A stretch of DNA of 64,000 nucleotides from Candidatus Aquivivens invisus (GCA_001804415.1 MHGA01000006.1:14308-78307); one strand, 5' to 3'. Counted from the first letter of the stretch, positions 1,806 to 58,367 are shown. Translations and numbers: made by a program. Notes: generated from the sequence alone by a model not told the origin.

Positions 1806-3233
1806 TCAAAACGCTATGGCCGAGGAGAGGAGACGGAGAAACGGCTCCTGCACGGTGCCGATGATGACGATGCCAAGGAGCAACAGGAAGAGGACGGCCC
1901 GGCTGATGCCGTCCACCGCGATCGGCTTCGAAGACGCAGGCTTCAGCAGGTACATGCGCCGCACCACACAGAGATAGTAGTACAGCGAGATCGCCACGTT
2001 GAGGCCACCGATCGCCGCCAGCCAGAGCCGATGGCTCTCGACGGCCGAGAGCAGCACGAGCAGCTTGCCGACGAATCCGGCCAGCGGCGGCACGCCGGCC
2101 AGCGACAACAGCGCCACGAACATCGCCGCCGCCAAGAAGGGCGAGCGGTGCGAGAGACCGTTGTACTCCTCCAGCGAGTCGCCGGGGACGATCATCACGA
2201 CGAAGAACGCCGCGAGGGTGCTGACCAGGTACGCCAGGAGGTAAAAGCCCACCGCCTGCGCGCCGGAGAGCAACCCGCTGCACAGCCCCATCAGCAGATA
2301 TCCTGCGTGGCCGATGGAGGAATAGCCGAGCAGCCGCTTGACGTTGGTCTGCGGGATCGCGGCGAGGTTGCCGTACAGCAGGGTCGCGGCGGAGAGCGCG
2401 GCGAGCACGGCCGTCCACACCGCCGCAACCGGCAAGGCCACCGAGTAGAGTAGGCGCAGCAGGACGATCATCCCCGCCATCTTCGAGCCGACCGACAGGA
2501 GTGCCACCACCGGGGTGGGCGCACCCTCGTAGACATCCGGCACCCAGAGATGAAACGGCACGGCCGCCACTTTGAATCCCAATCCCGCCAAGACCAGGAA
2601 CAACCCCGCGAGCACATTCGGGCCGGCCGGGCCGGAGGCCAACAGCGCGCGGAGCGCCTCGAATCCTGTGCCGCCCGCCGCGCCGTAGAGCAAGCTGATG
2701 CCGTACACCAGGAACCCCGAGGAGACAGAGCCCATGATCAGGTACTTCATACCGGCTTCGATGGAGCGGGGATCAGTCTTGACGTACGCGGCCATGACGT
2801 ACAGCGAGAACGTCAGCAGCTCCAAGGCGATGAACAGCAGCAGCAGATCGTTGATGGACGCCAGCACCAGCATCCCCAGCAGTGCGGAGAAGATCAAGAG
2901 GTAGAATTCTCCAAGGTGGGTGATGGCCAGCGGGTTCGCCTGGCGCATCATGGCGATCACGACCGCGGTGGTAATCAGGAAGAGCCACTTGAAGGTGAAG
3001 GCGAACCCATCAAAGAGAAACATGGGTCCGAAGGCCTGCCCGAGCCAACGCGATTGCCATCCCAGCACCCACGCCAGCACCCCGATCCCCAGCATCGCCA
3101 GGCTCCACAGCCGGCGCTGGCGCTTGCCGCGTTCCAGCCCCGCGAACCGGGGGGTGAGCAGCGCATCGCCCGCCAGCAGGACGGCGATCCAGCCGCAGAC
3201 GGCAAGCTCAATCGCGACAACCGGCCAATTCAT
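1806..3233 (-). CDS. nuoN: NADH-quinone oxidoreductase subunit N
   Basis: 14-TM antiporter-like subunit, NuoN-type N-terminus, follows nuoM. Confidence 0.85.
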   Translation of the reverse strand: MNWPVVAIELAVCGWIAVLLAGDALLTPRFAGLERGKRQRRLWSLAMLGIGVLAWVLGWQSRWLGQAFGPMFLFDGFAFTFKWLFLITTAVVIAMMRQANPLAITHLGEFYLLIFSALLGMLVLASINDLLLLFIALELLTFSLYVMAAYVKTDPRSIEAGMKYLIMGSVSSGFLVYGISLLYGAAGGTGFEALRALLASGPAGPNVLAGLFLVLAGLGFKVAAVPFHLWVPDVYEGAPTPVVALLSVGSKMAGMIVLLRLLYSVALPVAAVWTAVLAALSAATLLYGNLAAIPQTNVKRLLGYSSIGHAGYLLMGLCSGLLSGAQAVGFYLLAYLVSTLAAFFVVMIVPGDSLEEYNGLSHRSPFLAAAMFVALLSLAGVPPLAGFVGKLLVLLSAVESHRLWLAAIGGLNVAISLYYYLCVVRRMYLLKPASSKPIAVDGISRAVLFLLLLGIVIIGTVQEPFLRLLSSAIAF

Positions 3234-3248
3234 CTGTAGAAGATGTAA

Positions 3249-4814
3249 TCATCTAACAATCTGTGTAATCGAGGTCTGCTCTTTAGCTATATGCACTTCG
3301 AGAGGTTGCGCGGGTGCCAGGGTGCGCGCGACGAGCGGGCGCGTGGAGAGATCAATCAATCGCACCAGCGGCTTGGGCCAGCATCCCACGATCAACAGTG
3401 CTGCGATCAACACCACATACGGGAGGCGGGCAAACGGGGTGGCGGCGTCTTTCGCGTGGGCGAGGCTCTCGTTGGCGCCTCCGAAGAACACCCCGCGCAC
3501 CATCCGCAGCATGTACACCGAGGTGATCACGATCCCCAGCACCGCCAGCACCGCCTGCAGACGGTACCGATCCCACGACCCGAAGATCACCATCATCTCC
3601 GCCACGAAGTTCGCGAATCCCGGCAGGCCGCTGGACGCCATGGCGGCCATCACCCCGCAGGTGGCGATGAACGGCAGGCGCTTCGCCAGCCCTCCCAGCT
3701 CCGGCAGGGAGCGCGTGTGCGTCTCGTCGTAGATGTGGCCGACCAGCGCGAAGGCGAGCGCCGTCATCACCCCGTGCCCGAACATCAGCAACACCGCACC
3801 GTTGAGCGAGAGCGGAGTGAGCGCACAGATCCCCAGCAGGACGTAGCCCATGTGGCTGGAGGAGGAGTACCCGATGATGAACTTCAAATCTTTCTGGGCC
3901 ATGGCGACCAGCCCGCCGTAGATGATGTTCATCGTGCACAGCCCGGCGATCCACGGCAGCCACGCCTGCGCGCCGAGGGGCAGGAGGTTCAGCGGCAGGC
4001 GGATGATCGCGTAGGAACCCAGCTTCATCAGGACCGCCGCATGCAGCATGCTCACCGCCGACGGAGCCGCGGCGTGTCCGATAGGCGACCAGCTATGCAG
4101 CGGCCACAGCGGCGCGATGACCCCGAAGCCCACCGCCAGCAGGGGAAAGATCCACCACTGCAACCGGGCGTCCAGCGGATGGGCGCGCAGATGCTCCTCC
4201 AGCGCGACCACGTCAAAGGTCTGCGCCCCGCAACTGACGTACAGCCACAAGAGTCCGATCAACGCCAGCACCGCGCCGGAGGTGAGGTAAATCGTCAGCT
4301 TCATCGCGGCGTATTCTTTCGAGAACACCACCCGGCCGCCTTCCTTGGTATCGCTGCCCCAGACGCCGATGAGCGGATACATCGGGATCACCGCCATCTC
4401 GTAGAAGAAGTAGAAGAAGAACAGATCCAGCGACAGGAACACCCCGAACACGCCGGTGATGAGCAGCAGGTAGAAGAGATAGTATTCCTTCACGCGCTCC
4501 TTGATGGCGTACGAGATCAGCACGCCGGCGAAGGCGCAGATCGCATGCAGCAGCACCAGCACGGCGCTGATCCCATCCACCCCGAGGTGAAACCCGACGC
4601 CCAGCGCGGCGATCCACGGCACCTCCACGTGGAACTGATATCCACCGGAGGAGCGGTCGAAATTCGTCACCACCCACAGCGCGGTCAGCAGCGGGATGAA
4701 GGTCGCCCCCACCGCCACCCGCCGGATGAGGCGGATCTCTTGCCGGGGGAGCCACAGCAACAGCATCACGCCCATCGCCGGCGCCAGCAGGATCATCAGC
4801 AGCGGACTCATCAT
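3249..4814 (-). CDS. nuoM: NADH-quinone oxidoreductase subunit M (start ATGATGA overlapping nuoL stop)
   Basis: NuoM-type sequence; ATG at 4814 overlaps TGA of nuoL (4811-4813); the longer ORF to 4931 is rejected as extension. Confidence 0.85.
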   Translation of the reverse strand: MMSPLLMILLAPAMGVMLLLWLPRQEIRLIRRVAVGATFIPLLTALWVVTNFDRSSGGYQFHVEVPWIAALGVGFHLGVDGISAVLVLLHAICAFAGVLISYAIKERVKEYYLFYLLLITGVFGVFLSLDLFFFYFFYEMAVIPMYPLIGVWGSDTKEGGRVVFSKEYAAMKLTIYLTSGAVLALIGLLWLYVSCGAQTFDVVALEEHLRAHPLDARLQWWIFPLLAVGFGVIAPLWPLHSWSPIGHAAAPSAVSMLHAAVLMKLGSYAIIRLPLNLLPLGAQAWLPWIAGLCTMNIIYGGLVAMAQKDLKFIIGYSSSSHMGYVLLGICALTPLSLNGAVLLMFGHGVMTALAFALVGHIYDETHTRSLPELGGLAKRLPFIATCGVMAAMASSGLPGFANFVAEMMVIFGSWDRYRLQAVLAVLGIVITSVYMLRMVRGVFFGGANESLAHAKDAATPFARLPYVVLIAALLIVGCWPKPLVRLIDLSTRPLVARTLAPAQPLEVHIAKEQTSITQIVR

Positions 4815-6760
4815 GGATGGTTCGCCAGATACAGCAACGCGACGACTCCCACAAAAAACACCAACACGTACTGCTGCACCTTCCCGGTTTGGCACAAGCG
4901 CAGCAACCGGCCGGCCGTCTTGGTCGTCCACGCCGTGCCGTTGACCGCCAAGCCGATAATGACGAACCGCTCAAACAGCGCGCAGGCGGAGGCGATGAGG
5001 CGCTGCTGAATCCGATCCACATACCAGGCATACGCGTCGTCGATACGGTAGTGCCGAAGGAGCAGCCGGTAGACCGGGCCGAACGTCTGCGCAATCTTCG
5101 ACGGTGAGATTGAGCGCGTGCCGTAGATCAACCATGCCAGCCCGACGCCGATGGCCACCACCACCAGGGAGGTCCCGGCGATGCCCCAATGCAGCTCGGC
5201 CGCCTGCTCACCCAGAAACGCCGGGATGCCGAGGTAACCGCCGACGATGGACAGCGCCGCCAGCACCGCCAGCGGAACGAGCATGATCGTCGGAGACTCG
5301 TGCGGATGCAATCCGTGGGCGGGCGACCGAGCCGGCACCATCCCTGCTGGCGAGGAAGTGCCGTCAGCCGCAGGGCTGACGGCCTTGCCCACAAACGCCA
5401 CACACCACACCCGCGCCGTGTAGAACGCGGTGAAACCCGCGGTCACCGTCCCCAACCAGTAGAGCGAGGCGTTGTGCTCATGGGCGAGCGCGAGGATGGC
5501 ATCCTTGCTGAAAAAACCGCTCAAGCCCGGCGCGCCGCACAACGCCAGCGCGCCGACGAAAAACGAGAGCGACGTCCATCGCATCGACGTCCACAGTCCC
5601 CCCAGCTCCCAGATGTTCTGCCGGTGGGTGCCGTGGATGACGCTGCCGGCGCTGAGGAACAGCAGCGCCTTGAAAAACGCGTGCGTGGTGAGGTGATACA
5701 TGCCCGCGCCCGCCCCGCCCAACCCCACCGCCATCACCATGTAGCCAAGCTGGCTCAGCGTCGAGTACGCGAGGATGCGCTTCAGGTCCGATTCCACGAT
5801 GGCCAGGCACGCCGAGAGAAACGCCGTCGCGCCACCGACCCACGCGATCACGGTCAAGACGGTGCGCAACTCCTCGAACAGCCAGAAGGTCCGGCAGAGC
5901 ATGTAGACCCCGGCCGCCACCATCGTGGCCGCATGGATGAGCGCGGAGACCGACGTGGGCCCTTCCATCGCATCCGGCAGCCACACGTGCAGCGGAAACT
6001 GCGCCGACTTGCCCAGCACCCCGCAGAACAGCAACAGCCCGATCCCCGTCAGCGCCGTAGGGGACAGCCACCCCAGCTCCATCAGGTGCGGAAGCCGCTG
6101 GTACAGCGTCTGGAACTGCACGCTGCGCTCAGCGGCGATCGGGCTTGAGACGGCCCACAGCCAGACAATCCCCAGCAGGAAGCCGAAGTCCGCGACGCGG
6201 TTGACCATGAACGCTTTCTTGCCGGCCTCAGCGGCGGCGGGTTTCTCGTACCAGTGGCCGATGAGCGCGTAGGAGCAGAACCCCACTAGCTCCCAGCCGA
6301 TGAACAGCTCGATCCAGTTGGTCGCCAGGACGATCGCCAGCATGGAGAAGGCGAACAGCGACAGCAGTCCGAAGTACCGGCTGTAGCCGGCGTCATCCGC
6401 CATGTAGCCGATGGAATAGAGGAAGATGGCACTGCCCACGCCGGTGACCACCAGCGACATGAGCAGGGAGAGCCGGTCGATGAGCACCCCGAACGGAATG
6501 GAGAAGTCCGGCAGCCCGATCCATGTCACCGATAGCTCCAGCGGCAGGGTCAGGCCTCCGCTGCGCGCTTGGACGAACAGCGACAGCGCGCAGGCAAACG
6601 AGAGCAGCAGCCCCCCATTGGCGAGCAGCGCGCTCAACCGCCGTCGGGAGATCCCGAAGAGGAGAATCCCCAGCGCCGAGACGAGCGGGCTGAGCAACAG
6701 GGTCCACGCGCAGAAAACGGCTGAAGGCTGAAGGCTGAAGGCTGAAGGCTGGGCTACCAT
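4811..6760 (-). CDS. nuoL: NADH-quinone oxidoreductase subunit L; 12-aa N-terminal extension encoded by a (GGCTGAA)n heptamer tract
   Basis: 649-aa antiporter-like subunit with long C-terminal helix region; ATG 6760 overlaps nuoK stop. Confidence 0.85.
   Translation of the reverse strand: MVAQPSAFSLQPSAVFCAWTLLLSPLVSALGILLFGISRRRLSALLANGGLLLSFACALSLFVQARSGGLTLPLELSVTWIGLPDFSIPFGVLIDRLSLLMSLVVTGVGSAIFLYSIGYMADDAGYSRYFGLLSLFAFSMLAIVLATNWIELFIGWELVGFCSYALIGHWYEKPAAAEAGKKAFMVNRVADFGFLLGIVWLWAVSSPIAAERSVQFQTLYQRLPHLMELGWLSPTALTGIGLLLFCGVLGKSAQFPLHVWLPDAMEGPTSVSALIHAATMVAAGVYMLCRTFWLFEELRTVLTVIAWVGGATAFLSACLAIVESDLKRILAYSTLSQLGYMVMAVGLGGAGAGMYHLTTHAFFKALLFLSAGSVIHGTHRQNIWELGGLWTSMRWTSLSFFVGALALCGAPGLSGFFSKDAILALAHEHNASLYWLGTVTAGFTAFYTARVWCVAFVGKAVSPAADGTSSPAGMVPARSPAHGLHPHESPTIMLVPLAVLAALSIVGGYLGIPAFLGEQAAELHWGIAGTSLVVVAIGVGLAWLIYGTRSISPSKIAQTFGPVYRLLLRHYRIDDAYAWYVDRIQQRLIASACALFERFVIIGLAVNGTAWTTKTAGRLLRLCQTGKVQQYVLVFFVGVVALLYLANHP
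6718..6752. repeat. Tandem heptanucleotide repeat (GGCTGAA)x4.7 inside the first 15 codons of nuoL
   Basis: ggctgaa repeated 4 times perfectly + ggctggg; read directly. Confidence 0.95.
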
Positions 6761-7056
6761 TTGAGCTGGCGGACCTCATCGACGTTGAGCGTCTTCAATT
6801 GGCGGGACATCAGGATCGCAATCGCGAGTCCCACGGTGACCTCAGCCGCCGCAACGGTGATCACAAACAGCACGATGAGCTGCCCGTTCAGATCCCCCAG
6901 CGCCCGACCGTAGGCGACAAACGACAGGTTGGCCGCGTTGAACATCAGCTCGATGCACAGCAGGATCATCAGCACGTTGCGCCGCGTCATGATCCCGACG
7001 AGCCCGATCGCAAAGAGCACCCCGCTGAGGACGAGGTAGTGATTGAGGGTGATCAT
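6754..7056 (-). CDS. nuoK: NADH-quinone oxidoreductase subunit K
   Basis: 100 aa, 3 TM, conserved NuoK sequence. Confidence 0.9.
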   Translation of the reverse strand: MITLNHYLVLSGVLFAIGLVGIMTRRNVLMILLCIELMFNAANLSFVAYGRALGDLNGQLIVLFVITVAAAEVTVGLAIAILMSRQLKTLNVDEVRQLKW

Positions 7057-7654: not shown

Positions 7655-8779
7655 ATGAATCGTGCCCAACTCATCATCGCCGATAGCGAGAAAAACGCCA
7701 ACCTCTACTACGCCACGAGATTCCTGGCGCCCGATCCGTTCATCTTGGTTCAAGCCGACGGCCGCAAGCAGCTGGTCATGAGCGACCTGGAGCTGGATCG
7801 CGCCAAGGCGCAAGCGACGGTGGATGAGGTCCTCTCGTACACCGCCCTGGCCCGACAGGCCAAGCAACGGCTCAGCGGGGAACCGACGATGCTGGATGTC
7901 GTCGATGAGCTCTTGCAGGCGTACGGGGCGAAGGCGATCGAGGTCCCGCTCGATTTCAGCGTCGGGCACGCGGATGGGCTGAGGCAGCGGGGCTATGAGA
8001 TCGTCGCCAAGCCGGAGCCGTTTTACCCGCAGCGACTGCTGAAGTCCGAGGAGGAAATCGCCTTCCTCACCCAGACGCTTCGCGCGACGGAAGACGCGCT
8101 CGAATCGGCCATCGAGCTGATCCGCAACTCCGAGATCAAGGCCGACGGGACGCTGTGGATCGGTGGCAAGCCCCTCACGGTGGAGATGATCCGGAAGGTC
8201 CTGCACATGCAGCTGCTGGAGCGCAACTGCATCGGGCAGCACACGATCATCGCCTGCGGGGCGCAGGCGGTCGATCCGCACAACGAAGGTTCAGGCCCGC
8301 TGAGGGCCAACGAGCCGATCGTGATGGACGTGTTCCCGCAGCACGCCGATACGCGCTACTTCGCCGACATCACGCGCACCATCGTCAAGGGCAAGGCGGC
8401 TCCGAAAGTCCGCAAGATGTTCGACGCGGTGCGCGAGGGGCAGGAGATCGCCTTTCGGATGATCAAAGACGGCGTGGATGGGTCGGTGGTGCATCAAGCG
8501 ATCCTGGCCTCGTTCGAGTCGCTCGGGTTCAAGACGGGGCCGCAGGACGGCCGCATGCAGGGGTTCTTCCACGGGACGGGTCACGGGGTCGGCTTGGAGA
8601 TCCACGAGCCGCCGCGCATCAGCCCCCGCAAGGACATCTTGAGAGCCGGCATGGTGGTGACGGTTGAGCCCGGACTCTACTACATGGATGCCGGCGGGAT
8701 GCGCCTCGAGGACATGGTCGTGGTGACGAGCGACGGGTGTCTGGTGCTGACCCAGGCCCCGAAAATCTTGGAAGTGTAG
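7655..8779 (+). CDS. M24 family Xaa-Pro aminopeptidase / creatinase-type peptidase
   Basis: Creatinase N-domain plus pita-bread fold motifs (HGTGHGVGLEIHEPP, VEPGLY). Confidence 0.8.
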   Translation: MNRAQLIIADSEKNANLYYATRFLAPDPFILVQADGRKQLVMSDLELDRAKAQATVDEVLSYTALARQAKQRLSGEPTMLDVVDELLQAYGAKAIEVPLDFSVGHADGLRQRGYEIVAKPEPFYPQRLLKSEEEIAFLTQTLRATEDALESAIELIRNSEIKADGTLWIGGKPLTVEMIRKVLHMQLLERNCIGQHTIIACGAQAVDPHNEGSGPLRANEPIVMDVFPQHADTRYFADITRTIVKGKAAPKVRKMFDAVREGQEIAFRMIKDGVDGSVVHQAILASFESLGFKTGPQDGRMQGFFHGTGHGVGLEIHEPPRISPRKDILRAGMVVTVEPGLYYMDAGGMRLEDMVVVTSDGCLVLTQAPKILEV

Positions 8780-8783
8780 CGCC

Positions 8784-10403
8784 ATGCCCGAGACGCTCCA
8801 CACCACCGCCTTGACCCCTGAGCCCATCGTCAGGCTCGAGAACTATTTCCGCGAGCCGTACAACCTCGCCGTCGCGGCGGCGCGCACCTGTTACTCCTCC
8901 CAGGTGATCTCGACGGACGATGTGGACCGCGATGACCAAACCCGCGCCCAGCGGGACCGCATCGCGGAGAGCATCTACAAGGCCGGCCATCACACGACGA
9001 TCCAGCACCCCACCTTCCAGTTCGTCCTTGAGCGCGTGTCACGCCACTGCATTTGGTCCTTCCTCCACGCGCATCCTTTTTATAACAGCGAGCAGGTTTC
9101 ACAACGTTTTGTCGAGGTGAAGCCGGAGCATTTTACGATCCCGCCGCTGGAAGACGCCGCCCGGTCGATCTACCTCAAGGCGGTGCGCGCGCAGATGGAC
9201 GCCTACCACCGCCTGTGCGAGCTGGTGGAGCCGACGGTCAACCTGGAGTATCGGCGGATCTTTCCCCATCGCGAGCTGTCGGACAAACGCTGGAAGGGCG
9301 CCATCAAGAAACGCTGCCAGGAGGTGGCGAGGTACGTCTTGCCGGTGGCGACCCACGCGCACCTCTACCACACGATCAGCGGGATTACCCTGCACCGCTA
9401 CTGGCGGCTATGCCGGCAGTTTGACGTCCCGCTGGAGCAGCGCTTCGTCGTGCAGCGAATGGTCGAGGAGGTGTGCCGGGTCGATCCGAAGTTCATGGCC
9501 CTGGCGGAGGATCCGATGCCGATGGAGGAGACGCTGGAGTATCGCGTGTTCCAGGCTCTCCACGCCGGATCCCCGGCCCGCCTCGATGGCCAGAGTCCGG
9601 GGCGGGCAACCAACGGGACGGGCCGAGGCTTTGTCGATGAATTCGACCGGGAGCTCGGTGCGCACACCTCCAGGCTGGTGGATTACAAGGCGCGCGCGCA
9701 AGAGACCCTGGCGCAGGCGGTGCGATCGGTGCTCGGCGTACCCAGAGGACAGCTGTCAGATCTGCAGGCGATCGATCTGGTGCTCAATCCGGCGCGCAAC
9801 CCCTACCTGTCCGACACGCTGACCCTCACGACGGTCAGCAAGCTCTCCCGCGCCCTGGTGCATCCCCACTTTACATTTAAGAAGAAACTGTCGCACACCG
9901 CTGATTCGCAGGACCAGCGCCACCGCATGGTGCCCGCCTCGCGGCCGATCCTGCTGACCCACTTCGTCGCGGATCGACCGGACTACATCACCCCCGTCCT
10001 GATTCGCGCCACCCCGGAAGCTCTCGCCTGCTACGGCGAGGTGATGACCACGGTCTGGCGCGCCATCACCCGGTTGCTCGAGCTAGGGGTGAGCCACGAA
10101 TTCGCGCTGTACCTGCTCCCCAATGCGTTTCCGATCCGGTTTGAAGAGTCGGGCGATTTGCTGCACTTCCATCACAAGTGGGTGCAGCGGCTCTGCTACA
10201 CGGCGCAGGAGGAAATCTGGAACAGCTGTCGCGAAGAGGTGTTGCAGGTGACCGAGCGTTTTCCGGAGATCGGCCGGTACCTCCAAGCGCCGTGCTGGCC
10301 GAGGTCGCAGGCAGGGATTCGTCCGTACTGTCCCGAAGGCGACCGCTTCTGCGGCGTCGCCGTGTGGAAGCTGCCGGTCGAAGAGTACCAACGGCTCATT
10401 TGA
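8784..10403 (+). CDS. Tandem-domain ThyX-like (flavin-dependent thymidylate synthase family) protein, 539 aa
   Basis: Two ThyX-like halves; the first has GHHTTIQH...SRHCIWSFLHAHPF..SQRF (RHR replaced by HAH), the second retains RHRMVPAS. Confidence 0.55.
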   Translation: MPETLHTTALTPEPIVRLENYFREPYNLAVAAARTCYSSQVISTDDVDRDDQTRAQRDRIAESIYKAGHHTTIQHPTFQFVLERVSRHCIWSFLHAHPFYNSEQVSQRFVEVKPEHFTIPPLEDAARSIYLKAVRAQMDAYHRLCELVEPTVNLEYRRIFPHRELSDKRWKGAIKKRCQEVARYVLPVATHAHLYHTISGITLHRYWRLCRQFDVPLEQRFVVQRMVEEVCRVDPKFMALAEDPMPMEETLEYRVFQALHAGSPARLDGQSPGRATNGTGRGFVDEFDRELGAHTSRLVDYKARAQETLAQAVRSVLGVPRGQLSDLQAIDLVLNPARNPYLSDTLTLTTVSKLSRALVHPHFTFKKKLSHTADSQDQRHRMVPASRPILLTHFVADRPDYITPVLIRATPEALACYGEVMTTVWRAITRLLELGVSHEFALYLLPNAFPIRFEESGDLLHFHHKWVQRLCYTAQEEIWNSCREEVLQVTERFPEIGRYLQAPCWPRSQAGIRPYCPEGDRFCGVAVWKLPVEEYQRLI

Positions 10404-10411
10404 AGCAAGCG

Positions 10412-10460
10412 ACAAGGGACAAGGGACAAGGGACAAGGGACAAGGGACAAGGGACAAGGA
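10412..10460. repeat. Tandem heptanucleotide repeat (ACAAGGG)x7 between thyX-like stop and cld-like start
   Basis: Seven consecutive 7-nt units, last one ACAAGGA. Confidence 0.95.
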
Positions 10461-10462
10461 AC

Positions 10463-11209
10463 ATGACCATGCCGATACCGGTCGAGGAAGCCAAGAGCCA
10501 CGCCCCCGCGGTTCAACGGGAGGCCGTGGCTCGGCAGATCGTGGGGTTCTCGTTCTACCGCGTGGATCCGGAGTGGAGGCGGCTGCCGGCTTCGACGAAG
10601 CGCAGGCAGGGCGGGGAGCTGGCCGGTGTCATCACGCGCTACGCCAAGCAGCTGATGGTGCTGACCTATTCGCTCGTCGGGTTGAAGCCCGACGTCGACT
10701 TCTTGATCTGGCGCGTGGGCAACCGGCTTGAGCAGCTGCAGGCGATGTCGGCGGCGGTTCGGCAGACGGCGATGGCCGGGTACCTGTCGATGCCGCACGC
10801 GTATCTGTCGATGACGAAACGGTCCACCTACGTGGATAAGCTCGATCCCGATCACGCGGATGCGCGGCGGTTCATCACGCCGTTTCACAGCAAGTACCTG
10901 TTCGTCTATCCCTTCGTGAAAACCCACGAATGGTATCAGCTCCCGTTCGAACAGCGCCAGGCGATGATGGACGAGCATATCGTCCTGGGGAACACGTACC
11001 CCTCGGTGCGGATCCACACGACCTACGGCTTCGGGCTGGATGATCACGAGTTCGTCCTCGCCTTTGAAACCGACCACCCTCAGGACTTCCTCGATCTCGT
11101 GATGGCGATGCGCGAGAGCAAGGCTCGCCCCTACACCCTGCGGGATACGCCGATCTTCACCTGTGTGGCCAAACCGTTTGATGAGATTCTCAATGAAATC
11201 GGCTGCTGA
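10463..11209 (+). CDS. Chlorite dismutase family protein (Cld-like/HemQ-like), cytoplasmic (no signal peptide)
   Basis: C-terminal half aligns with Nitrospira Cld (YxFVKTxEWYxLxxxxRxxMMxEH, GLDDxxF..FET); ATG right after the heptamer tract. Confidence 0.75.
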   Translation: MTMPIPVEEAKSHAPAVQREAVARQIVGFSFYRVDPEWRRLPASTKRRQGGELAGVITRYAKQLMVLTYSLVGLKPDVDFLIWRVGNRLEQLQAMSAAVRQTAMAGYLSMPHAYLSMTKRSTYVDKLDPDHADARRFITPFHSKYLFVYPFVKTHEWYQLPFEQRQAMMDEHIVLGNTYPSVRIHTTYGFGLDDHEFVLAFETDHPQDFLDLVMAMRESKARPYTLRDTPIFTCVAKPFDEILNEIGC

Positions 11210-15245: not shown

Positions 15246-15284
15246 CATATTAGTGGAATTGAGTTGGTAGCAGGGAGGGAGAGG

Positions 15285-15551
15285 ATGAAGGAGATCACAG
15301 CTCTCGAGCTTCGGAAGCGCTTTGGGGAAGTCATGGAAGATGTTCGTTATCGCAAGGAGCCGTATCTCGTAAAGCGGAACGGACGCCCCATGATCGTGCT
15401 GCTTGATATCGATGCGTATCAGGCCGATGAAAGTCGCCGAAAGGAAGACGTCTTCATTGAAGACTATACCGAGGAGCGTCTTCAGGAATTCTTAGAGGAA
15501 GACCGCCTGGATCCCGGCGTGCAGGCCCGTGTGAATCGGCGTCTGCGATAA
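15285..15551 (+). CDS. Phd/YefM-family antitoxin
   Basis: MKEITALELRKRFGEVMEDV...PYLVKRNGRPMIVLLDIDAYQ typical YefM/Phd N-domain. Confidence 0.8.
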   Translation: MKEITALELRKRFGEVMEDVRYRKEPYLVKRNGRPMIVLLDIDAYQADESRRKEDVFIEDYTEERLQEFLEEDRLDPGVQARVNRRLR

Positions 15552-15983
15552 ATGGTCCGGGTCTTCCTGGATGCGAACGTGTATTTCGCTGGTTGTTATT
15601 CTGCGAAGGGGGCCTCGGCGCTCCTGCTGAAGCTGGCGGTGCGCAAACGCCTCCAAGTGGTGGCATCTCGGCTAGTATTGCGGGAAGCCGAGCGCAACTT
15701 GCATGCGAAAGCCGATCGCAAGGCTCTGCGCGTGTTTCATCGGTTCTTAGAGACTGCCACCCCGCGCATACTTCGAACGCCATCCGCCAAAACGCTCGCT
15801 GCCTACGAGACGATTATTCATCCGAAAGACGTCCCAGTGCTGGCTGCGGCCGTTGAAGCAAAGGTTGACTATCTGGTGACGCTGGACCGCCGGCATTTCT
15901 TTGCCCCCCTCGTCGAGGCCCGAATTAAATCGCCGCGCATTCTGGCCCCCGGCGACTTCCTACAGGAATGGCTGTCGAGATGA
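15552..15983 (+). CDS. PIN-domain (VapC-like) toxin
   Basis: FLDANVY PIN signature, TAAATG junction with antitoxin. Confidence 0.75.
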   Translation: MVRVFLDANVYFAGCYSAKGASALLLKLAVRKRLQVVASRLVLREAERNLHAKADRKALRVFHRFLETATPRILRTPSAKTLAAYETIIHPKDVPVLAAAVEAKVDYLVTLDRRHFFAPLVEARIKSPRILAPGDFLQEWLSR

Positions 15984-16219
15984 AACGTACAAAACGCGAA
16001 GTGGCGGACATCATTGACTCATTTTTATCAGGCGAGGGAGAGGAGTGGGACTGGGATGATTTTACCAGCATTCCAATTCACGATCCCGAGTTAAACAGAA
16101 TTCGTCTGAGGTGCGTTCAACTCGACAAAGAATTTCCTCCAGAGAAACGTGGCGAGTATTGTAATGCTCATGGAATGGACGTGTTGCGGGATTATGTGAA
16201 GCGATTACGGACGAAATAG
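15979..16219 (+). CDS. Small acidic hypothetical protein in low-GC island (80 aa)
   Basis: ATGA overlap with vapC stop; markedly AT-rich codon usage. Confidence 0.4.
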
Positions 16220-16226
16220 AGATCTG

Positions 16227-16790
16227 ATGGAGAGAATGATGCGCATTGTAGTCGGGATGACGGGGGCGTCGGGGGCGGTCTTCGGGGTGGAGTTTCTGCG
16301 GCGATGTCAGGCGGAGAAATACCTGATTCTGACGAAGTGGGGGCGGTACGTGCTGAAAGAAGAAACCGGCCTGACCGAACACCATCTAGCCGAGCATGTC
16401 AAACGCAGCTTTTCAGACGACGATCTCTCCGCGCCGTTTTCCTCAGGGTCGACGCCGTTCGATGCGCTGGTGATCGTGCCCTGCTCCGCCTCGACGATGG
16501 CCAAGCTCGCTGTCGGGATTGCCGATACCCTGCTGACAAGGGCGGCGATGGTCGCTCTCAAAGAACGGCGAAAGCTGATCATCTGCCTTCGCGAGACGCC
16601 GTTGTCCACCATCCACTTGGAACAGGCGCACAAGCTCTCGCAGGCCGGCGCCATCGTGATGCCGATTTGCCCGCCGTTCTATCACCGCCCCCAGACGATC
16701 GACGAGATGGTGAGCCAGTTCACCGAGAAGGTCCTGAGTCTCCTCGGATTCGAAACCTCGCTTGCTTGGAAAGCCGAAGCCCTTGAGTAA
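16227..16790 (+). CDS. ubiX: Flavin prenyltransferase UbiX family (MqnL-like in futalosine route)
   Basis: Flavoprotein fold motifs GMTGASGAV, PCSASTMAKLAVGIADTLLTRAA. Confidence 0.85.
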   Translation: MERMMRIVVGMTGASGAVFGVEFLRRCQAEKYLILTKWGRYVLKEETGLTEHHLAEHVKRSFSDDDLSAPFSSGSTPFDALVIVPCSASTMAKLAVGIADTLLTRAAMVALKERRKLIICLRETPLSTIHLEQAHKLSQAGAIVMPICPPFYHRPQTIDEMVSQFTEKVLSLLGFETSLAWKAEALE

Positions 16791-18548
16791 ATGGCTGATT
16801 TGCAATCCTTCCTCTCCCTCTTAGAACGCGAGGACCAACTCGCCCGCATCCGGGTGGAGGTCGATCCGGAGCTCGAGATCACCGAGATCGCCACGCGCGT
16901 GGTCAAGGAACGGGGGCCGGCGCTGTTGTTCGAGCGGGTGAAAGGCTCGGCCATCCCTCTGGCGATTAACATCTTGGGGACTGAGCGGCGCATCGAGCTC
17001 GCGCTCGGTCGGCACCCGCAAGAGGTTGGGGCCTCGCTGAAGCGCTTGATGGAAGCCGCGATGCCGCCTCGGCCCAAGCGGTTGCTCGAGGAATGGCGCA
17101 CCGTTGGCCGGGTGCTGTCGATGCCGCCCAGGCGGGTGCGTCGCGCGGCGTGCCACGACGTGGAAGAACCGCCCGACCTGGGGAAGCTGCCCATCATGAA
17201 ATGCTGGCCGAACGACGCGGGGCGGTTCATCACCTGCGGGATGGTGCTGACGCATGATCCCAAGACGGAGGTCCGGAACCTTGGCATCTACCGGATGCAG
17301 GTGGTCGGAGGCGATCAGGTGCTCATGCACTGGCAGATCCAGAAGGGCGGAGGATTCCACTATTGGAAAGCCGAGCAGCAGGGCAAGGCGCTGGCGGTCT
17401 CGGTCATCATCGGCGCAGATCCTCTCCTTTATATCGCTTCGGTCGCTCCGCTGCCTGAAGGGATTGACGAGCTGGCGTTCGCCGGATTTCTGGGAGGCCG
17501 GCGCATCCCGCTGGTGCATGGGAAGGCCACACCGACCGTCGCTCCCGCCGAGGCGGAGATCGTGCTGGAAGGTGTGGTGCCGCCTGATGAGCGCCTGCCC
17601 GAAGGGCCGTTCGGGGACCATTTCGGCCACTACTCCCATCCCGCGCCGTTTCCCGTGATGTGGGTTCAGACCATGACGCGCCGCGCCAAGCCGATTTATC
17701 TCTCGGCGGTCGTGGGCAAACCCCCTCAAGAGGACCGGTATATCGGCGACGCGGTGCAGGAGATGCTGCTGCCGATGATCCGGTTGATCCATCCGGAGCT
17801 GAAGGACCTGTGGGCCTATTACGAGGCCGGGTTTCACAGCCTGGCGGTGGCGGCGGTTGAGGAGCGGTACGGCAAGGAAGGGATGAAGACCGCCCTGGGG
17901 CTGCTGGGAACCGGGCAGATGAGCCTCACCAAGTGCCTCATCCTGGTGGATCCGGACGTCAACGCGCGCGACGCCAACGAAGTGCTGCGCGCCGTGCGCG
18001 ATCATTTCGATCCGGCGGAGGACTTTCTCTTGCTCCCTGGTGTCCCTTTTGATACGCTAGATTTTACGAGCCTGACCCCCAATCTGGGCAGCAAGATGGT
18101 GCTCGATGCCACCCGCGACGGGAAGGCATCCCCTCCAGGGGTTCCTCCAGTTGATCTGGAGGCTGTCCGGTGTCTGCATCCACGGATCCAAGCTGCCCGC
18201 ATCATCGGGGGATGTCTGGTGGCGGTCCAGGTCGAGGGCGAAGGCCGCTCGGTGGTGGAGGCGCTCGTTCAGGCGGATGCGTTGCGCGCCGTCAAGCTGA
18301 TCGCCGCGGTCAGCGCCGACGTGGACCTGCGCGAGGGCGAAAGCCTGTTGTGGGGGATCTTCACGCGGTTTGATCCCGCCCGCGACGTCGTCTTCACCGA
18401 GGTGGAGCTCCACGGAGGCTGGCCCATCCACCGAGGCCGCCTCGGCATCGATGCCACCTTCAAGACCGGATACCCTGATCCGATCGTGATGGATCCGGCA
18501 GTCGTCACACGAGTCACCCAACGATGGCCTCACTACTTCAAGGCGTAG
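16791..18548 (+). CDS. ubiD: UbiD-family decarboxylase (MqnM-like in futalosine route)
   Basis: 585 aa, UbiD family conserved blocks; starts 1 nt after ubiX stop. Confidence 0.8.
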   Translation: MADLQSFLSLLEREDQLARIRVEVDPELEITEIATRVVKERGPALLFERVKGSAIPLAINILGTERRIELALGRHPQEVGASLKRLMEAAMPPRPKRLLEEWRTVGRVLSMPPRRVRRAACHDVEEPPDLGKLPIMKCWPNDAGRFITCGMVLTHDPKTEVRNLGIYRMQVVGGDQVLMHWQIQKGGGFHYWKAEQQGKALAVSVIIGADPLLYIASVAPLPEGIDELAFAGFLGGRRIPLVHGKATPTVAPAEAEIVLEGVVPPDERLPEGPFGDHFGHYSHPAPFPVMWVQTMTRRAKPIYLSAVVGKPPQEDRYIGDAVQEMLLPMIRLIHPELKDLWAYYEAGFHSLAVAAVEERYGKEGMKTALGLLGTGQMSLTKCLILVDPDVNARDANEVLRAVRDHFDPAEDFLLLPGVPFDTLDFTSLTPNLGSKMVLDATRDGKASPPGVPPVDLEAVRCLHPRIQAARIIGGCLVAVQVEGEGRSVVEALVQADALRAVKLIAAVSADVDLREGESLLWGIFTRFDPARDVVFTEVELHGGWPIHRGRLGIDATFKTGYPDPIVMDPAVVTRVTQRWPHYFKA

Positions 18549-18574
18549 CCGACCGCCTTCAGCGCCGCGCGCGG

Positions 18575-19702
18575 ATGTCGAGAGCAGAGGCGCTGAAGCT
18601 CTTTGAGGCACGCGATCTCATCGGCCTCGGGCAATTGGCGAACGAGGTCAAGCAAGCCACATGGGGCGATCGCGCCCACTTTGTGATCAACCGCCAGATC
18701 AACCCTACGAACGTCTGCGTCCTGTCCTGCCGGTTCTGCGACTTCGCGACCAAGCGGGGACGCCCTAACGCCTACGAGATGACGATCCAGGACGTCTTAG
18801 ATCGCCTCAGCCCGGAGCTGCGGGAAGTCCACATCGTGCAGGGGCTGCATCCGGACTGGACGTGGGATTTCTACCTGGAGATGCTCCGCGCGATCAAGAC
18901 GAGCTTCCCCCGGATGCAGATCAAAGCCTGGACGGCGGTTGAGATTGACTATTTCTCCAAGAAGTTTCGCCTCTCGGTCGAAGAGGTCCTGGTGCAGATG
19001 AAGGAGGCGGGGCTCTCCGCCTTGCCCGGCGGGGGCGCGGAGGTGTTTTCCGAACGGGTGCGCAAGGCGCTGTTTCCCTTTAAAATCGGCGCGCCGAGGT
19101 GGCTGGAGATTCACCGGATCGCGCATCAGCTGGGCATCCCGACCAACGCGACCTTGCTGTACGGCCACATCGAGACGCGCGAAGAACGCGTGGATCACCT
19201 CCTGAAGCTTCGCGAACTCCAGGATGACACCGGCGGCTTCATGAGCTTCATCCCGTTGGCGTATCAAGTCGGCAAGACGCGCGTGGTCGAGCGCCAGGCG
19301 TCGGCGATCGAGGACCTCAAGACGATGGCGATCTCCAGGCTGCTCCTGGACAACATCCCCCACATCAAAGCCTACTGGGTGACGATGGGTGAAGAGACGG
19401 CGTCGATCGCCCTGAACTTCGGGGCCGATGATCTCGACGGGACGATCGGGGAGGAGCGGATCATGCATGCCGCGGATGCCGCAAGCCCGATTCGGCAGAC
19501 CCGCGAGCGGCTGGTGGAACTCATCCGAGCCTCCGGATGCGTGCCGGTGGAACGCGATGCCCTCTATCACGAGGTCGCGGTGTGCGACCCTTCGACTCGC
19601 GCCACGGCCTCTGGCCGTGGGCTCGCTCAGGATTCCGCCCCACGGGCGCAGGAAGAGGTGCCACGGGCTCTGCCCGTGGGGCTCCACAATGGCCACCGGT
19701 AA
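18575..19702 (+). CDS. Radical SAM menaquinone biosynthesis enzyme, MqnC/MqnE family (paralog 1; alternative start 18524); about 45-aa C-terminal extension encoded by hairpin repeats
   Basis: NPTNVCVLSCRFCDFA cluster motif, CofG/CofH-like fold. Confidence 0.75.
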   Translation: MSRAEALKLFEARDLIGLGQLANEVKQATWGDRAHFVINRQINPTNVCVLSCRFCDFATKRGRPNAYEMTIQDVLDRLSPELREVHIVQGLHPDWTWDFYLEMLRAIKTSFPRMQIKAWTAVEIDYFSKKFRLSVEEVLVQMKEAGLSALPGGGAEVFSERVRKALFPFKIGAPRWLEIHRIAHQLGIPTNATLLYGHIETREERVDHLLKLRELQDDTGGFMSFIPLAYQVGKTRVVERQASAIEDLKTMAISRLLLDNIPHIKAYWVTMGEETASIALNFGADDLDGTIGEERIMHAADAASPIRQTRERLVELIRASGCVPVERDALYHEVAVCDPSTRATASGRGLAQDSAPRAQEEVPRALPVGLHNGHR

Positions 19703-19736
19703 AGTCAGAAGTCAAAAGTCAGAAGTCGGAAGTACA
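19702..19736. repeat. Tandem heptanucleotide repeat (AAGTCAG)x5 (imperfect) between mqnC/E paralog 1 and mqnA
   Basis: aagtcag aagtcaa aagtcag aagtcgg aagtaca, followed by CT-rich run. Confidence 0.9.
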
Positions 19737-19766
19737 CTTCCCTCTTCCCCCTTCGCTCTTCCCCCT

Positions 19767-20522
19767 TTGACGGTGGCCCGCATTCCGTATCTCAACTGCG
19801 CGCCGTTTTTTGCCGGCCTTCCGCTCAAGCCAGGATGGGAGGTGGTCGACGTTGCGCCCAGGCGTTTAGGCCAGATGGCTGAGGAGGGCAAGTTCTTGGC
19901 GGGCGTGATGTCGCTGGCGGATTACCTGCGGTTGCAGGATCGCTTCGAGCGGATCGGGCCGCTGGGGGTGGCGGTGCGGGGACGGGTGGGCAGCGCGCTG
20001 CTGTTTTCGCGCAAACCCCTTCGGCAGCTGGACGGCGCCTGCGTCGCGGTGACGGACGAAACGTCGACGACCGCCCTGTTGCTTCGCGTGATCCTGGAAC
20101 AGCGTTACCACCTGACGGTTCGACTCGCGCCGCACGCCCACCCGACCCAGCAGGATGCTGACGCGGTGCTGCTGATCGGCGATGAGGCCTTGCGGTTTGG
20201 CAGCGTCAACCGGCTCTATCCGTTTGAGATTGATGTCGCCTTTGAATGGTGGTTGTGGCAGCATCTGCCCTGCGTCTTCGCCGTGTGGGCGATCCGCGCG
20301 GACGCCGGCGCGAGCACCAAGCGGGAGGTGAGCGAAGCCCTCCAGCGCACCCTGGCGGTCAACCTGCGTCGCCTCGATGAGCTCGTCATCCAACCGGCTG
20401 CCTCCCTGCACGTTCCGGCCGAGGACCTCACGATGTATCTGAGCCGGTTCATCTATCGTCTCAGCGCCGAGGAGGAGCGCGCCATCCAGCGCTTCGCCCA
20501 ACTGTCCCAATCCATGGCATGA
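19767..20522 (+). CDS. mqnA: Chorismate dehydratase MqnA (start uncertain: TTG 19767/GTG 19773, or ATG 19689 if heptamer tract is translated)
   Basis: RIPYLNCAPF MqnA signature, PF02621-type fold. Confidence 0.75.
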   Translation: MTVARIPYLNCAPFFAGLPLKPGWEVVDVAPRRLGQMAEEGKFLAGVMSLADYLRLQDRFERIGPLGVAVRGRVGSALLFSRKPLRQLDGACVAVTDETSTTALLLRVILEQRYHLTVRLAPHAHPTQQDADAVLLIGDEALRFGSVNRLYPFEIDVAFEWWLWQHLPCVFAVWAIRADAGASTKREVSEALQRTLAVNLRRLDELVIQPAASLHVPAEDLTMYLSRFIYRLSAEEERAIQRFAQLSQSMA

Positions 20523-45487: not shown

Positions 45488-45492
45488 AGCGG

Positions 45493-45559
45493 CGACAAGC
45501 GACACGCGACAAGCGACAAGAAGAGAATCATGTCACTTGTCCCTTGTCACTTGTCACTC
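45493..45559. repeat. Inverted arrays of heptamers: (CGACAAG)x4, 10-nt spacer, (CTTGTCA/TGTCACT)x4; long hairpin between M15 peptidase stop and permease start
   Basis: Read directly; right arm supplies the last codons and stop of the peptidase. Confidence 0.9.
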
Positions 45560-57348: not shown

Positions 57349-58221
57349 ATGAAACGGGTGTTGGTCGTCTACAAGAAAAGCGCCTATCAGCTCCACGTGG
57401 TGGAGCGGAAGGATCCGTGGCTGAGGCGGCTGCTGCGAGCGAGTCACCCCGATGCCCTCGACTGGCTCGCGGCCCACCGCGTGCAACAACGCACCCTCGA
57501 TGCCGTGGTGCGCAGCCTGCGCAGCCTCGGCGTGCGGGAGACCCTGGTCTATCGCGAGCGCCTTCGGCCCGCCACCGGCTACGATCTGGTGCTGAGTGTG
57601 GGAGGCGACGGGACGGTGCTGCAGGCCTCCCACTTCATGAAGGACACGCCGCTCCTGGGCGTGAACTCAGATCCGACGCGCAGTGAGGCCGTGTTCTGCG
57701 CGGCCACCGCCTCGGACGTCCATCGAGTCGTGCGGGACGCGTTGGAGGGCCGGCTGCCCGCGCTCTTGCTCTACCGCTTGGCCGTTGCGCTCAACGGCCG
57801 GCGGCTGGGTCCGTTAGCGCTCAATGACGTGCTGATCGCCCATGAGGATCCCGCCACGATGAGCCGCTATCGCCTGCGGCTCGGCGCCCGGTGTGAAGAT
57901 CACAAGAGTTCAGGATTGTGGGTGGCCACCGCCGCGGGCTCCAGCAGCGCGATGGCCGCGGCGGGAGGAAGGCGCCTGCCCTGGGGGGCCAAGCGGTTTC
58001 AGTACCGGCCTCGCGAGCTGTACCAGGGGCGCTTGACCCGTTGTCGCCTGACAGGCGGGCAGCTTTCGCCCCCACGGTGTCTTGAGTTGGTCTGGTTGAT
58101 GCGGGAGGGTGCGGTCTTTCTCGACGGGCCGCATCTCAAACACCGACTGCGATTCGGGGATCGGGTGACGGTGTCGCTCTCGCCGCAACATCCATTCCGC
58201 GTGCTGGGCTTACGCCGATGA
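57349..58221 (+). CDS. nadK: NAD kinase
   Basis: GGDGT motif, NAD kinase fold. Confidence 0.8.
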   Translation: MKRVLVVYKKSAYQLHVVERKDPWLRRLLRASHPDALDWLAAHRVQQRTLDAVVRSLRSLGVRETLVYRERLRPATGYDLVLSVGGDGTVLQASHFMKDTPLLGVNSDPTRSEAVFCAATASDVHRVVRDALEGRLPALLLYRLAVALNGRRLGPLALNDVLIAHEDPATMSRYRLRLGARCEDHKSSGLWVATAAGSSSAMAAAGGRRLPWGAKRFQYRPRELYQGRLTRCRLTGGQLSPPRCLELVWLMREGAVFLDGPHLKHRLRFGDRVTVSLSPQHPFRVLGLRR

Positions 58222-58228
58222 GACAGAG

Positions 58229-58336
58229 CGACAAGCGACAAGCGACAGGTAACAAGTCGAACAGGCCTACTCGAGGGCAGCTTCCTCTGTTGTGGTGTTG
58301 CCTTGTCGCTTGTACCTTGTCGCTTGTCCCTGTCCT
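58229..58336. repeat. Inverted arrays of heptamers (CGACAAG)x3-5 ... 37-nt spacer ... (CTTGTCG/CTTGTMC)x5 between nadK and memo-ammecr1
   Basis: Read directly; ATG 58218 (overlapping nadK TGA) is in frame through the array with the downstream gene. Confidence 0.9.
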
Positions 58337-58367
58337 TGAGGTCACGGCGGAGCCGCGAAGCGCCCGC

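Follow-up and report, generated by a model that had tools for sequence, protein, structure and literature searches.

Is a repeat whose unit cannot keep the reading frame, placed just inside the start of a core respiratory gene, a genetic switch or an ordinary product of repeat growth? The question is raised by a 64,000-nucleotide (nt) stretch of DNA from Candidatus Aquivivens invisus (GCA_001804415.1 MHGA01000006.1:14308-78307; hereafter the window), in which a perfect heptanucleotide tract lies in the first codons of nuoL. Our analysis favours, with a probability of roughly two in three, a three-unit expansion, fixed and in frame, of a heptamer array of the kind typical of this genome; it would lie in an N-terminal tail of NuoL that tolerates changes of length and probably faces the periplasm. 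As found, the tract is a coding repeat that is read in frame, and at the same time a latent frameshift hazard; no sign of on/off switching was seen in any public assembly sampled.

Tandem Repeats Finder (TRF) detects the tract as a single array at 6719..6751 on the minus strand, with a period of 7, 4.7 copies and 100% matches. The unit reads GGCTGAA on the plus strand and TTCAGCC on the sense strand, where the array is laid out as CAGCC followed by 4 x TTCAGCC. It begins 6 nt after the nuoL ATG (6760-6758, minus strand), which is embedded in the last nuoK codons AAA TGG TAG. Indeed, the sense strand at the end of nuoK runs CAG CTC AAA TGG TAG, the nuoL ATG starts one base before TGG, and the two genes overlap by 7 nt (AAATGGTAG), and on this strand the nuoK TAG stop (6756-6754, minus strand) precedes the first base of the tract by 2 nt. 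The sequence-only reading had placed a 7-nt tract directly inside the start of nuoL, with the ATG overlapping the nuoK stop, and this is borne out by TRF, the sequence and the open reading frames (ORFs). Read from the ATG, the 5' end of nuoL is A-ATG-GTA-GCC-CAG-CCT-TCA-GCC-TTC-AGC-CTT-CAG-CCT-TCA-GCC-GTT-TTC-TGC-GCG-TGG. The tract makes up codons 4-14 and encodes QPSAFSLQPSA, that is 11 residues and not the 12 counted earlier, with a net gain of 7 residues (three units) over the closest repeat-free relatives. None of the sense frames of the repeat contains a stop codon, and the residues it encodes are all uncharged. The two-unit pattern (14 nt, at most 2 mismatches) has 4 matches, all within the tract, a number reached in 0/100 dinucleotide-preserving shuffles, and the tract is far beyond chance.

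The genes on both sides of this junction are well identified by sequence comparison. The nuoK ORF (6754..7056, minus strand; 100 amino acids, aa) carries Pfam Oxidored_q2 and the source name NuoK. The nuoL ORF (4811..6760, minus strand; 649 aa from the ATG) carries Pfam Proton_antipo_N/M and matches NuoL/Nqo12/ND5 chains in the PDB (6hum_F, 8e9g_L, 4he8_L, 3rko_L; E 2e-37 to 4e-27). Pfam, the gene order nuoJ-K-L-M-N and these solved chains confirm the identities of NuoK and NuoL.

The origin of the tract is suggested by the relatives. The closest species-level relatives in the genome collection are metagenome-assembled genomes (MAGs) of Candidatus Omnitrophota, with a NuoL identity of 63-73%. 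Nine relatives were used to compare the gene start, namely five Omnitrophota loci (L001-L005) and four much closer ones (L055-L058), whose NuoK falls in the same 90% cluster. In the window, the leader MVAQPSA[FSLQPSA]VFCAW places 18 aa before the conserved Trp, and in the closest relatives the leader is MVTSSFPALCAW, with 11 aa and without the repeat; the difference is exactly 7 aa, or 21 nt, or three units. A simulated 1.7-copy allele (CAGCC-TT-CAGCC) yields MVAQPSAVFCAW, whose leader is as long as that of the relatives (11 aa). Since the difference amounts to exactly three units and the relatives are free of the repeat, the tract, as judged by this comparison, is a lineage-specific, frame-preserving expansion.

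The same simulation defines which copy numbers are compatible with NuoL. Only 1.7, 4.7 and 7.7 copies (i.e. 1.7 + 3n) are in frame, and the out-of-frame copy numbers run into a stop after 32-131 aa, with 39 aa for the loss of one unit and 124 aa for the gain of one. The earlier argument that gain or loss of one unit must destroy the frame, 7 not being a multiple of 3, thus holds for the simulated alleles, and a change of two units does the same. If the tract is translated, as conservation of the ATG frame in 9/9 relatives indicates, three 7-nt units encode one 7-aa repeat, (QPSAFSL)n.

Whether the tract is translated depends on where nuoL begins. In 9/9 related loci, the reading frame of the ATG inside AAATGGTAR is open and is that of NuoL, despite differing leader lengths. 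In L001-L005, where nuoK ends with KW-stop, the leaders before the conserved Trp opening the first transmembrane helix (TM1) measure 6, 9, 9, 12 and 26 aa; in L055-L058 they measure 11 aa and follow MVT(S/P)(S/P)FP(A/V)(L/V)CAW. The F-C-A-W of the window (codons 16-19; 6704..6715, minus strand) belongs to a conserved [FLVS]-C-A-W motif that opens TM1. The sequence-only reading had found no further in-frame ATG or GTG until inside TM1; it passes over an in-frame TTG at codon 22 (6697-6695, minus strand), which gene callers chose on 5 sibling contigs. F-C-A-W stands between the tract and this TTG, and the motif is seen as LCAW, VCAW or SCAW in L055-L058 and L003, again upstream of the TTG position; its conservation there places initiation upstream of the TTG. 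As a result of these two starts, the same DNA is called as a NuoL of 649 aa (ATG) or 628 aa (TTG; the 5 sibling contigs, L041-L044 and L059) across public assemblies, an annotation split that is caused by the repeat-bearing leader. The idea that the 628-aa form is a frameshift allele was rejected, since 4/4 contigs inspected (of these 5) carry the standard 4.7-copy tract.

If NuoL did start at the TTG, the array would be an untranslated intercistronic spacer and its copy number would be neutral for the frame. Besides the choice made by the gene callers, this is what one would expect from the nuoK-nuoL junction arrays of Nitrospira and Verrucomicrobiota, which are non-coding, and from the other arrays of the window, which likewise begin at or after stop codons. 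In a structure alignment, window residue 18 corresponds to residue 8 of Mycobacterium smegmatis NuoL, residue 21 to residue 7 of Thermus thermophilus Nqo12 and residue 23 to residue 6 of E. coli NuoL. The leader would thus be an extra N-terminal tail of ~10-17 residues beyond the solved NuoLs, and a start at TTG-22 would cost merely ~4-7 residues of the canonical N-terminus, so that it is not dismissible on structural grounds alone. Moreover, the TTG is unique to the tract-bearing lineage. On the other hand, this uniqueness means that 9/9 relatives have CTG or a different non-start codon at codon 22, and none of them has another plausible start anywhere from the ATG to TM1. The conserved ATG frame, the CAW motif and the expansion by exactly three units argue against the TTG as well, and no Shine-Dalgarno-like sequence precedes it. 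TTG accounts for 12.9% of Leu codons in nuoK-N. Finally, the lone single-nucleotide polymorphism (SNP) within the tract, at ~position 465 of the sibling contig L044 (window 6724), changes the last unit from TTCAGCC to TTCCGCC; in the ATG frame this TCA>TCC change is synonymous (Ser), and in that strain the repeat is no longer perfect. A GAGG lies 13 nt upstream of the nuoL ATG, and the start of nuoK itself is without an obvious Shine-Dalgarno sequence; since conserved NuoK Asp-Glu codons explain the GAGG, it is uninformative. Collectively, the 9/9 in-frame conservation, the CAW upstream of the TTG, the absence of this TTG from relatives and the synonymous SNP make the ATG the best-supported start, inferred from comparison with relatives, and an untranslated tract unlikely. 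The two forms predict distinct N-terminal peptides, VAQPSAFSLQPSAVF-type if the tract is translated and MLSPLV... if the TTG is used.

The leader and the tract were also considered for other roles. An RRR directly follows TM1, and from the positive-inside rule together with the established topology of NuoL we take the N-tail to be on the periplasmic side. Its reading as a lipoprotein signal was rejected, since AVFC and PALC misfit the lipobox by our own reading of the sequence. No signal of RNA structure was found around the tract (minimum free energy -36.6 vs -40.9 kcal/mol for shuffles, z = +1.1); as the tract also has no inverted partner array nearby, a role in RNA structure was rejected. 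In this the tract RNA differs from the hairpins that inverted arrays could form elsewhere in the window.

To what extent does the copy number vary? Identical NuoL and NuoK sequences are deposited under Omnitrophica WOR_2 bacterium GWA2_63_20 and its sibling MAGs, among them UBA-type third-party (TPA) assemblies. The sibling set comprised 15 distinct contigs, which represent no fewer than 10 assemblies or samples in ENA, JGI and NCBI and were built by different assemblers; their sources are groundwater metagenomes, for instance ANAN16 samples, PRJNA292723 and PRJNA268031. The nuoL tract has 4.7 copies in 15/15 of these contigs. No NuoL of 642 or 656 aa occurs in the 90% NuoL cluster, whose members have 649 aa or 628 aa or are fragments, and none of the exact products of the 1.7-, 2.7-, 3.7-, 5.7-, 6.7- and 7.7-copy alleles was found among ~15 billion proteins. 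The copy-number check in sibling genomes that had been proposed thus returned invariance, as far as public assemblies allow, and the contingency switch that had been claimed gains no variant length or product from it, with a power that is limited: the contigs represent largely one low-diversity aquifer population, in part through the same data assembled anew, and all are consensus sequences, in which minority alleles are invisible. A late nuoL call in L040/L054 was rejected as a variant, since it comes from a run of Ns that fills a scaffold gap, on the downstream side of the tract. Pattern scans of metagenome DNA (variable gap of 1.7-9.7 copies; fixed left flank) gave no match; the collection evidently does not hold the organism and is uninformative on variation.

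The probability that the tract was created by errors of assembly or sequencing is negligible. It is true that tandem repeats can mis-assemble, and L046 does carry NN inside a longer array of the window, array 10406. However, the nuoL tract spans 33 nt, less than a read, and has the same length in IDBA-type scaffolds, MEGAHIT k127/k141 and JGI assemblies, and NCBI MAGs.

Array 10406 behaves differently from the tract. In the same contigs it shows three length alleles: the window has 8.3 copies, most contigs have 7.3 and L048 has 6.3. This shows that heptamer slippage is active in this population. The imperfect 4-5-copy arrays 19702/19737 and 58222/58301, in contrast, are invariant in 9 and 10 sibling contigs, respectively. 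Since these other 4-5-copy arrays are equally invariant, the constancy of the nuoL tract is expected with or without selection and has limited power; its use as proof of purifying selection is thereby weakened.

Slippage at array 10406 is one of the observations that would fit a contingency locus, in which slipped-strand mispairing turns NuoL off and on in a reversible way, and NuoM and NuoN along with it through coupling. The anatomy is also suitable: a perfect 7-nt repeat stands 6 nt past the start codon, a change of one or two units truncates the product to 39-124 aa, and nuoM (3249..4814, minus strand; an ORF and a gene call in the sibling contig L045 mapped back to the window) overlaps the nuoL stop through ATGA at 4811-4814, so that nuoM is plausibly coupled to nuoL in translation. 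The next gene, nuoN (1806..3233, minus strand), is an ORF with Proton_antipo_M. In addition, an origin by three added units implies passage through out-of-frame alleles, and neuO offers a precedent, its 5' coding AAGACTC repeat being ON only at counts divisible by 3 (PMC13001214). We nevertheless consider such a locus quite unlikely. No copy variant was seen in the 15 contigs, the 90% protein cluster or the six product look-ups, whereas neuO is out of frame in 65.6% of genomes. The tract has only 4.7 copies, and other 4-5-copy arrays of the window are stable; its target is a core respiratory subunit and not a surface, restriction-modification or phage-interaction gene; and the genome-wide heptamer habit described below offers a neutral origin.

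Several points weigh against the fixed, in-frame expansion that we prefer. Even an array that does not code would be in frame in one case out of three. Support for the ATG is comparative throughout, the upstream GAGG being accounted for by NuoK codons. The invariance of the tract carries low weight, given one low-diversity population, re-assemblies, and short control arrays that do not vary either. Furthermore, the tract is 100% perfect, compared with 75-90% matches in the window's other 4-5-copy period-7 arrays, and this perfection suggests recent or ongoing slippage. Finally, growth from 1.7 to 4.7 copies by single-unit slippage must have involved one or more intermediates that were out of frame and yet at least transiently viable. 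A viable OFF or rescued intermediate is what a switch requires, and this is the main point in favour of past or present toggling. Since such an intermediate is needed and the TTG is found only in the tract-bearing lineage, a switch acting at low frequency can be envisaged: slippage would take the ATG-initiated NuoL out of frame, TTG-22 would act as a rescue start, and the proton-pumping module would be phase-variable. Its states may be a long-leader NuoL, a low-level short NuoL initiated at the TTG, or no NuoL/M/N. We regard this variant as distinctly improbable.

The neutral origin is suggested by the window itself. In its 64 kb, 8 period-7 arrays reach a TRF score of at least 40; 100 Markov-1 simulations gave 0.03 such arrays on average and at most 1 per run. 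The 7 arrays other than the tract lie in or at the edges of short intergenic spacers, typically starting at a stop codon, and 5/8 share the core GACAAGN. Slippage-prone heptamers are a habit of this genome, and the tract is no peculiarity of nuoL.

Some of these arrays deserve a closer description. Array 10406-10463, a near-perfect (GACAAGG)n of 8 copies, occupies the spacer that separates a Chlor_dismutase-like gene from the stop of thyX (Thy1) at 10403. Two inverted pairs (45492-45520 with 45531-45558, and 58222-58256 with 58301-58335) share the core GACAAGN / NCTTGTC; they are located in short spacers between same-strand genes, where long imperfect hairpins could form. At the first pair, one array contains the stop of a VanY-like gene (45547), and the other is 4 nt away from the ATG of a permease gene (45487); the VanY-like protein had no match in an exact look-up. 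The arrangement of an ATG over an upstream stop, followed by 7-mer arrays in an open frame and then a conserved N-terminus, recurs twice more, at 58218-58340 and 19689-19775. In the first case, a Memo/AMMECR1-like ORF, gene calls give 505 aa or 472 aa. In the second, an MqnA-like ORF, they give 277, 226 or 348 aa, and the canonical start is probably a GTG giving MARIPYLN.

Period-7 arrays, in many cases as inverted pairs, are also found at the junctions of other nuo operons. In Nitrospira they occur in the nuoJ-K, nuoK-L and nuoL-M spacers and are non-coding (L010, L015 and L031, at about 5480-5560, 5885-5973 and 7884-7957). Non-coding arrays are present in the nuoK-L spacer of Verrucomicrobiota (L007 5816-5978; L008 4912-5068) and in the nuoJ-K spacer of the Omnitrophota relative L003 (5664-5696). 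Heptamer arrays at nuo operon junctions are a recurrent, cross-phylum association, and mRNA processing, mRNA stability and translational decoupling are possible roles. Since nuoK and nuoL overlap in the window lineage, an array that is seeded where they meet is bound to fall within nuoL.

The surroundings of the operon were seen in L045. Its positions 15345-19779, which extend beyond window position 1, show that the nuo genes are split: nuoJKLMN is followed by a T2SSE-family ATPase gene and then by nuoI-, nuoH- and nuoG-like genes on the opposite strand. At 1081-1779 (~window 15278-15976), the same contig has a PIN_3 / PhdYeFM antitoxin pair between UbiA and flavoprotein/UbiD genes, which puts this toxin-antitoxin module in a menaquinone/ubiquinone-type biosynthesis neighbourhood.

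How the expansion may have come about can be proposed as follows. The genome would be unusually prone to making and expanding 7-nt arrays, normally in intergenic spacers. The overlapping nuoK/nuoL junction has no spacer, and here an array would have grown from the 1.7-copy seed CAGCC-TT-CAGCC within the first nuoL codons. This would be a recent, lineage-specific microsatellite expansion in which the reading frame was kept by chance. The three extra units (21 nt) would amount to one added uncharged heptad, FSLQPSA, in the short N-tail of NuoL, which presumably tolerates a change of length. Translation would proceed from the ATG over the nuoK stop and read through the tract, as the relatives suggest. 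Only 1.7 + 3n copies would allow NuoL synthesis, with 4.7 being the allele of every public assembly sampled.

The tract belongs to known kinds, as a coding simple sequence repeat (SSR) and as part of a genome rich in heptameric SSRs. Its closest mechanistic analogue would be neuO, the O-acetyltransferase gene of the CUS-3 prophage in E. coli K1, which has 3-53 repeats across 64 genomes, 65.6% of them out of frame, and in which ~7% of the alleles in a culture have one unit more or less; its repeat number modulates protein activity (PMC13001214). In both genes full-length protein is made only at frame-keeping counts (divisible by 3 in neuO, 1.7 + 3n in nuoL), and three 7-nt units encode one 7-aa peptide repeat. 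However, neuO modifies the surface capsule and is widely variable, whereas nuoL encodes a core respiratory subunit and its 4.7-unit tract has no variant in any assembly, so that the analogy would lack the defining feature of neuO, copy-number variability. Similarly, the nuoL tract shares with SSR contingency loci a perfect repeat, a unit that is not a multiple of 3 and a position in the 5' coding region, while strain differences in copy number, including out-of-frame alleles, were not seen among the 15 consensus contigs of this low-diversity population.

The genome as a whole resembles those with heptameric SSRs, such as the tandem heptanucleotides of cyanobacteria, GGGAATC of Xanthomonas and TAACTGA of Beggiatoaceae (PMC4692102, PMC4679880). 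It has the same period-7 excess, locus-specific units, positions mostly in spacers beside start or stop codons and some inverted pairs. Array length varies between close strains in those genomes; here it does so at array 10406, while the nuoL tract and arrays 19702/19737 and 58222/58301 had one length each in the contigs compared. Unlike those overwhelmingly intergenic arrays, the nuoL tract lies in frame inside an essential-looking ORF, and its host, unlike those named, is an uncultivated Omnitrophota lineage. General searches of the heptanucleotide-repeat literature, none of them specific to the phylum, yielded no earlier report of Omnitrophota heptamer arrays. A further parallel is provided by the tandem repeats of Borgs, which are reported to include perfect, recent in-ORF repeats that keep the frame and add a low-complexity peptide (PMC9879509). 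The nuoL tract would likewise be a frame-preserving in-ORF repeat that adds a low-complexity segment; its 7-nt unit keeps the frame only at every third copy number.

If the fixed, in-frame expansion is the correct explanation, nuoL would be a clean natural example of a heptamer slippage habit spilling into an essential-looking gene. Selection would let only every third copy number pass, and the outcome would be a new 7-residue segment at the N-terminus of the protein. The locus would also serve as an annotation warning, as gene callers split identical DNA into NuoLs of 649 aa and 628 aa, and it would make a specific population-genetic prediction, testable on existing Rifle read sets. Were the tract a true switch, the range of contingency loci would widen from pathogens' surface and defence genes to core bioenergetics, which would be unusual, and it would do so in an environmental phylum whose members are possibly host-dependent.

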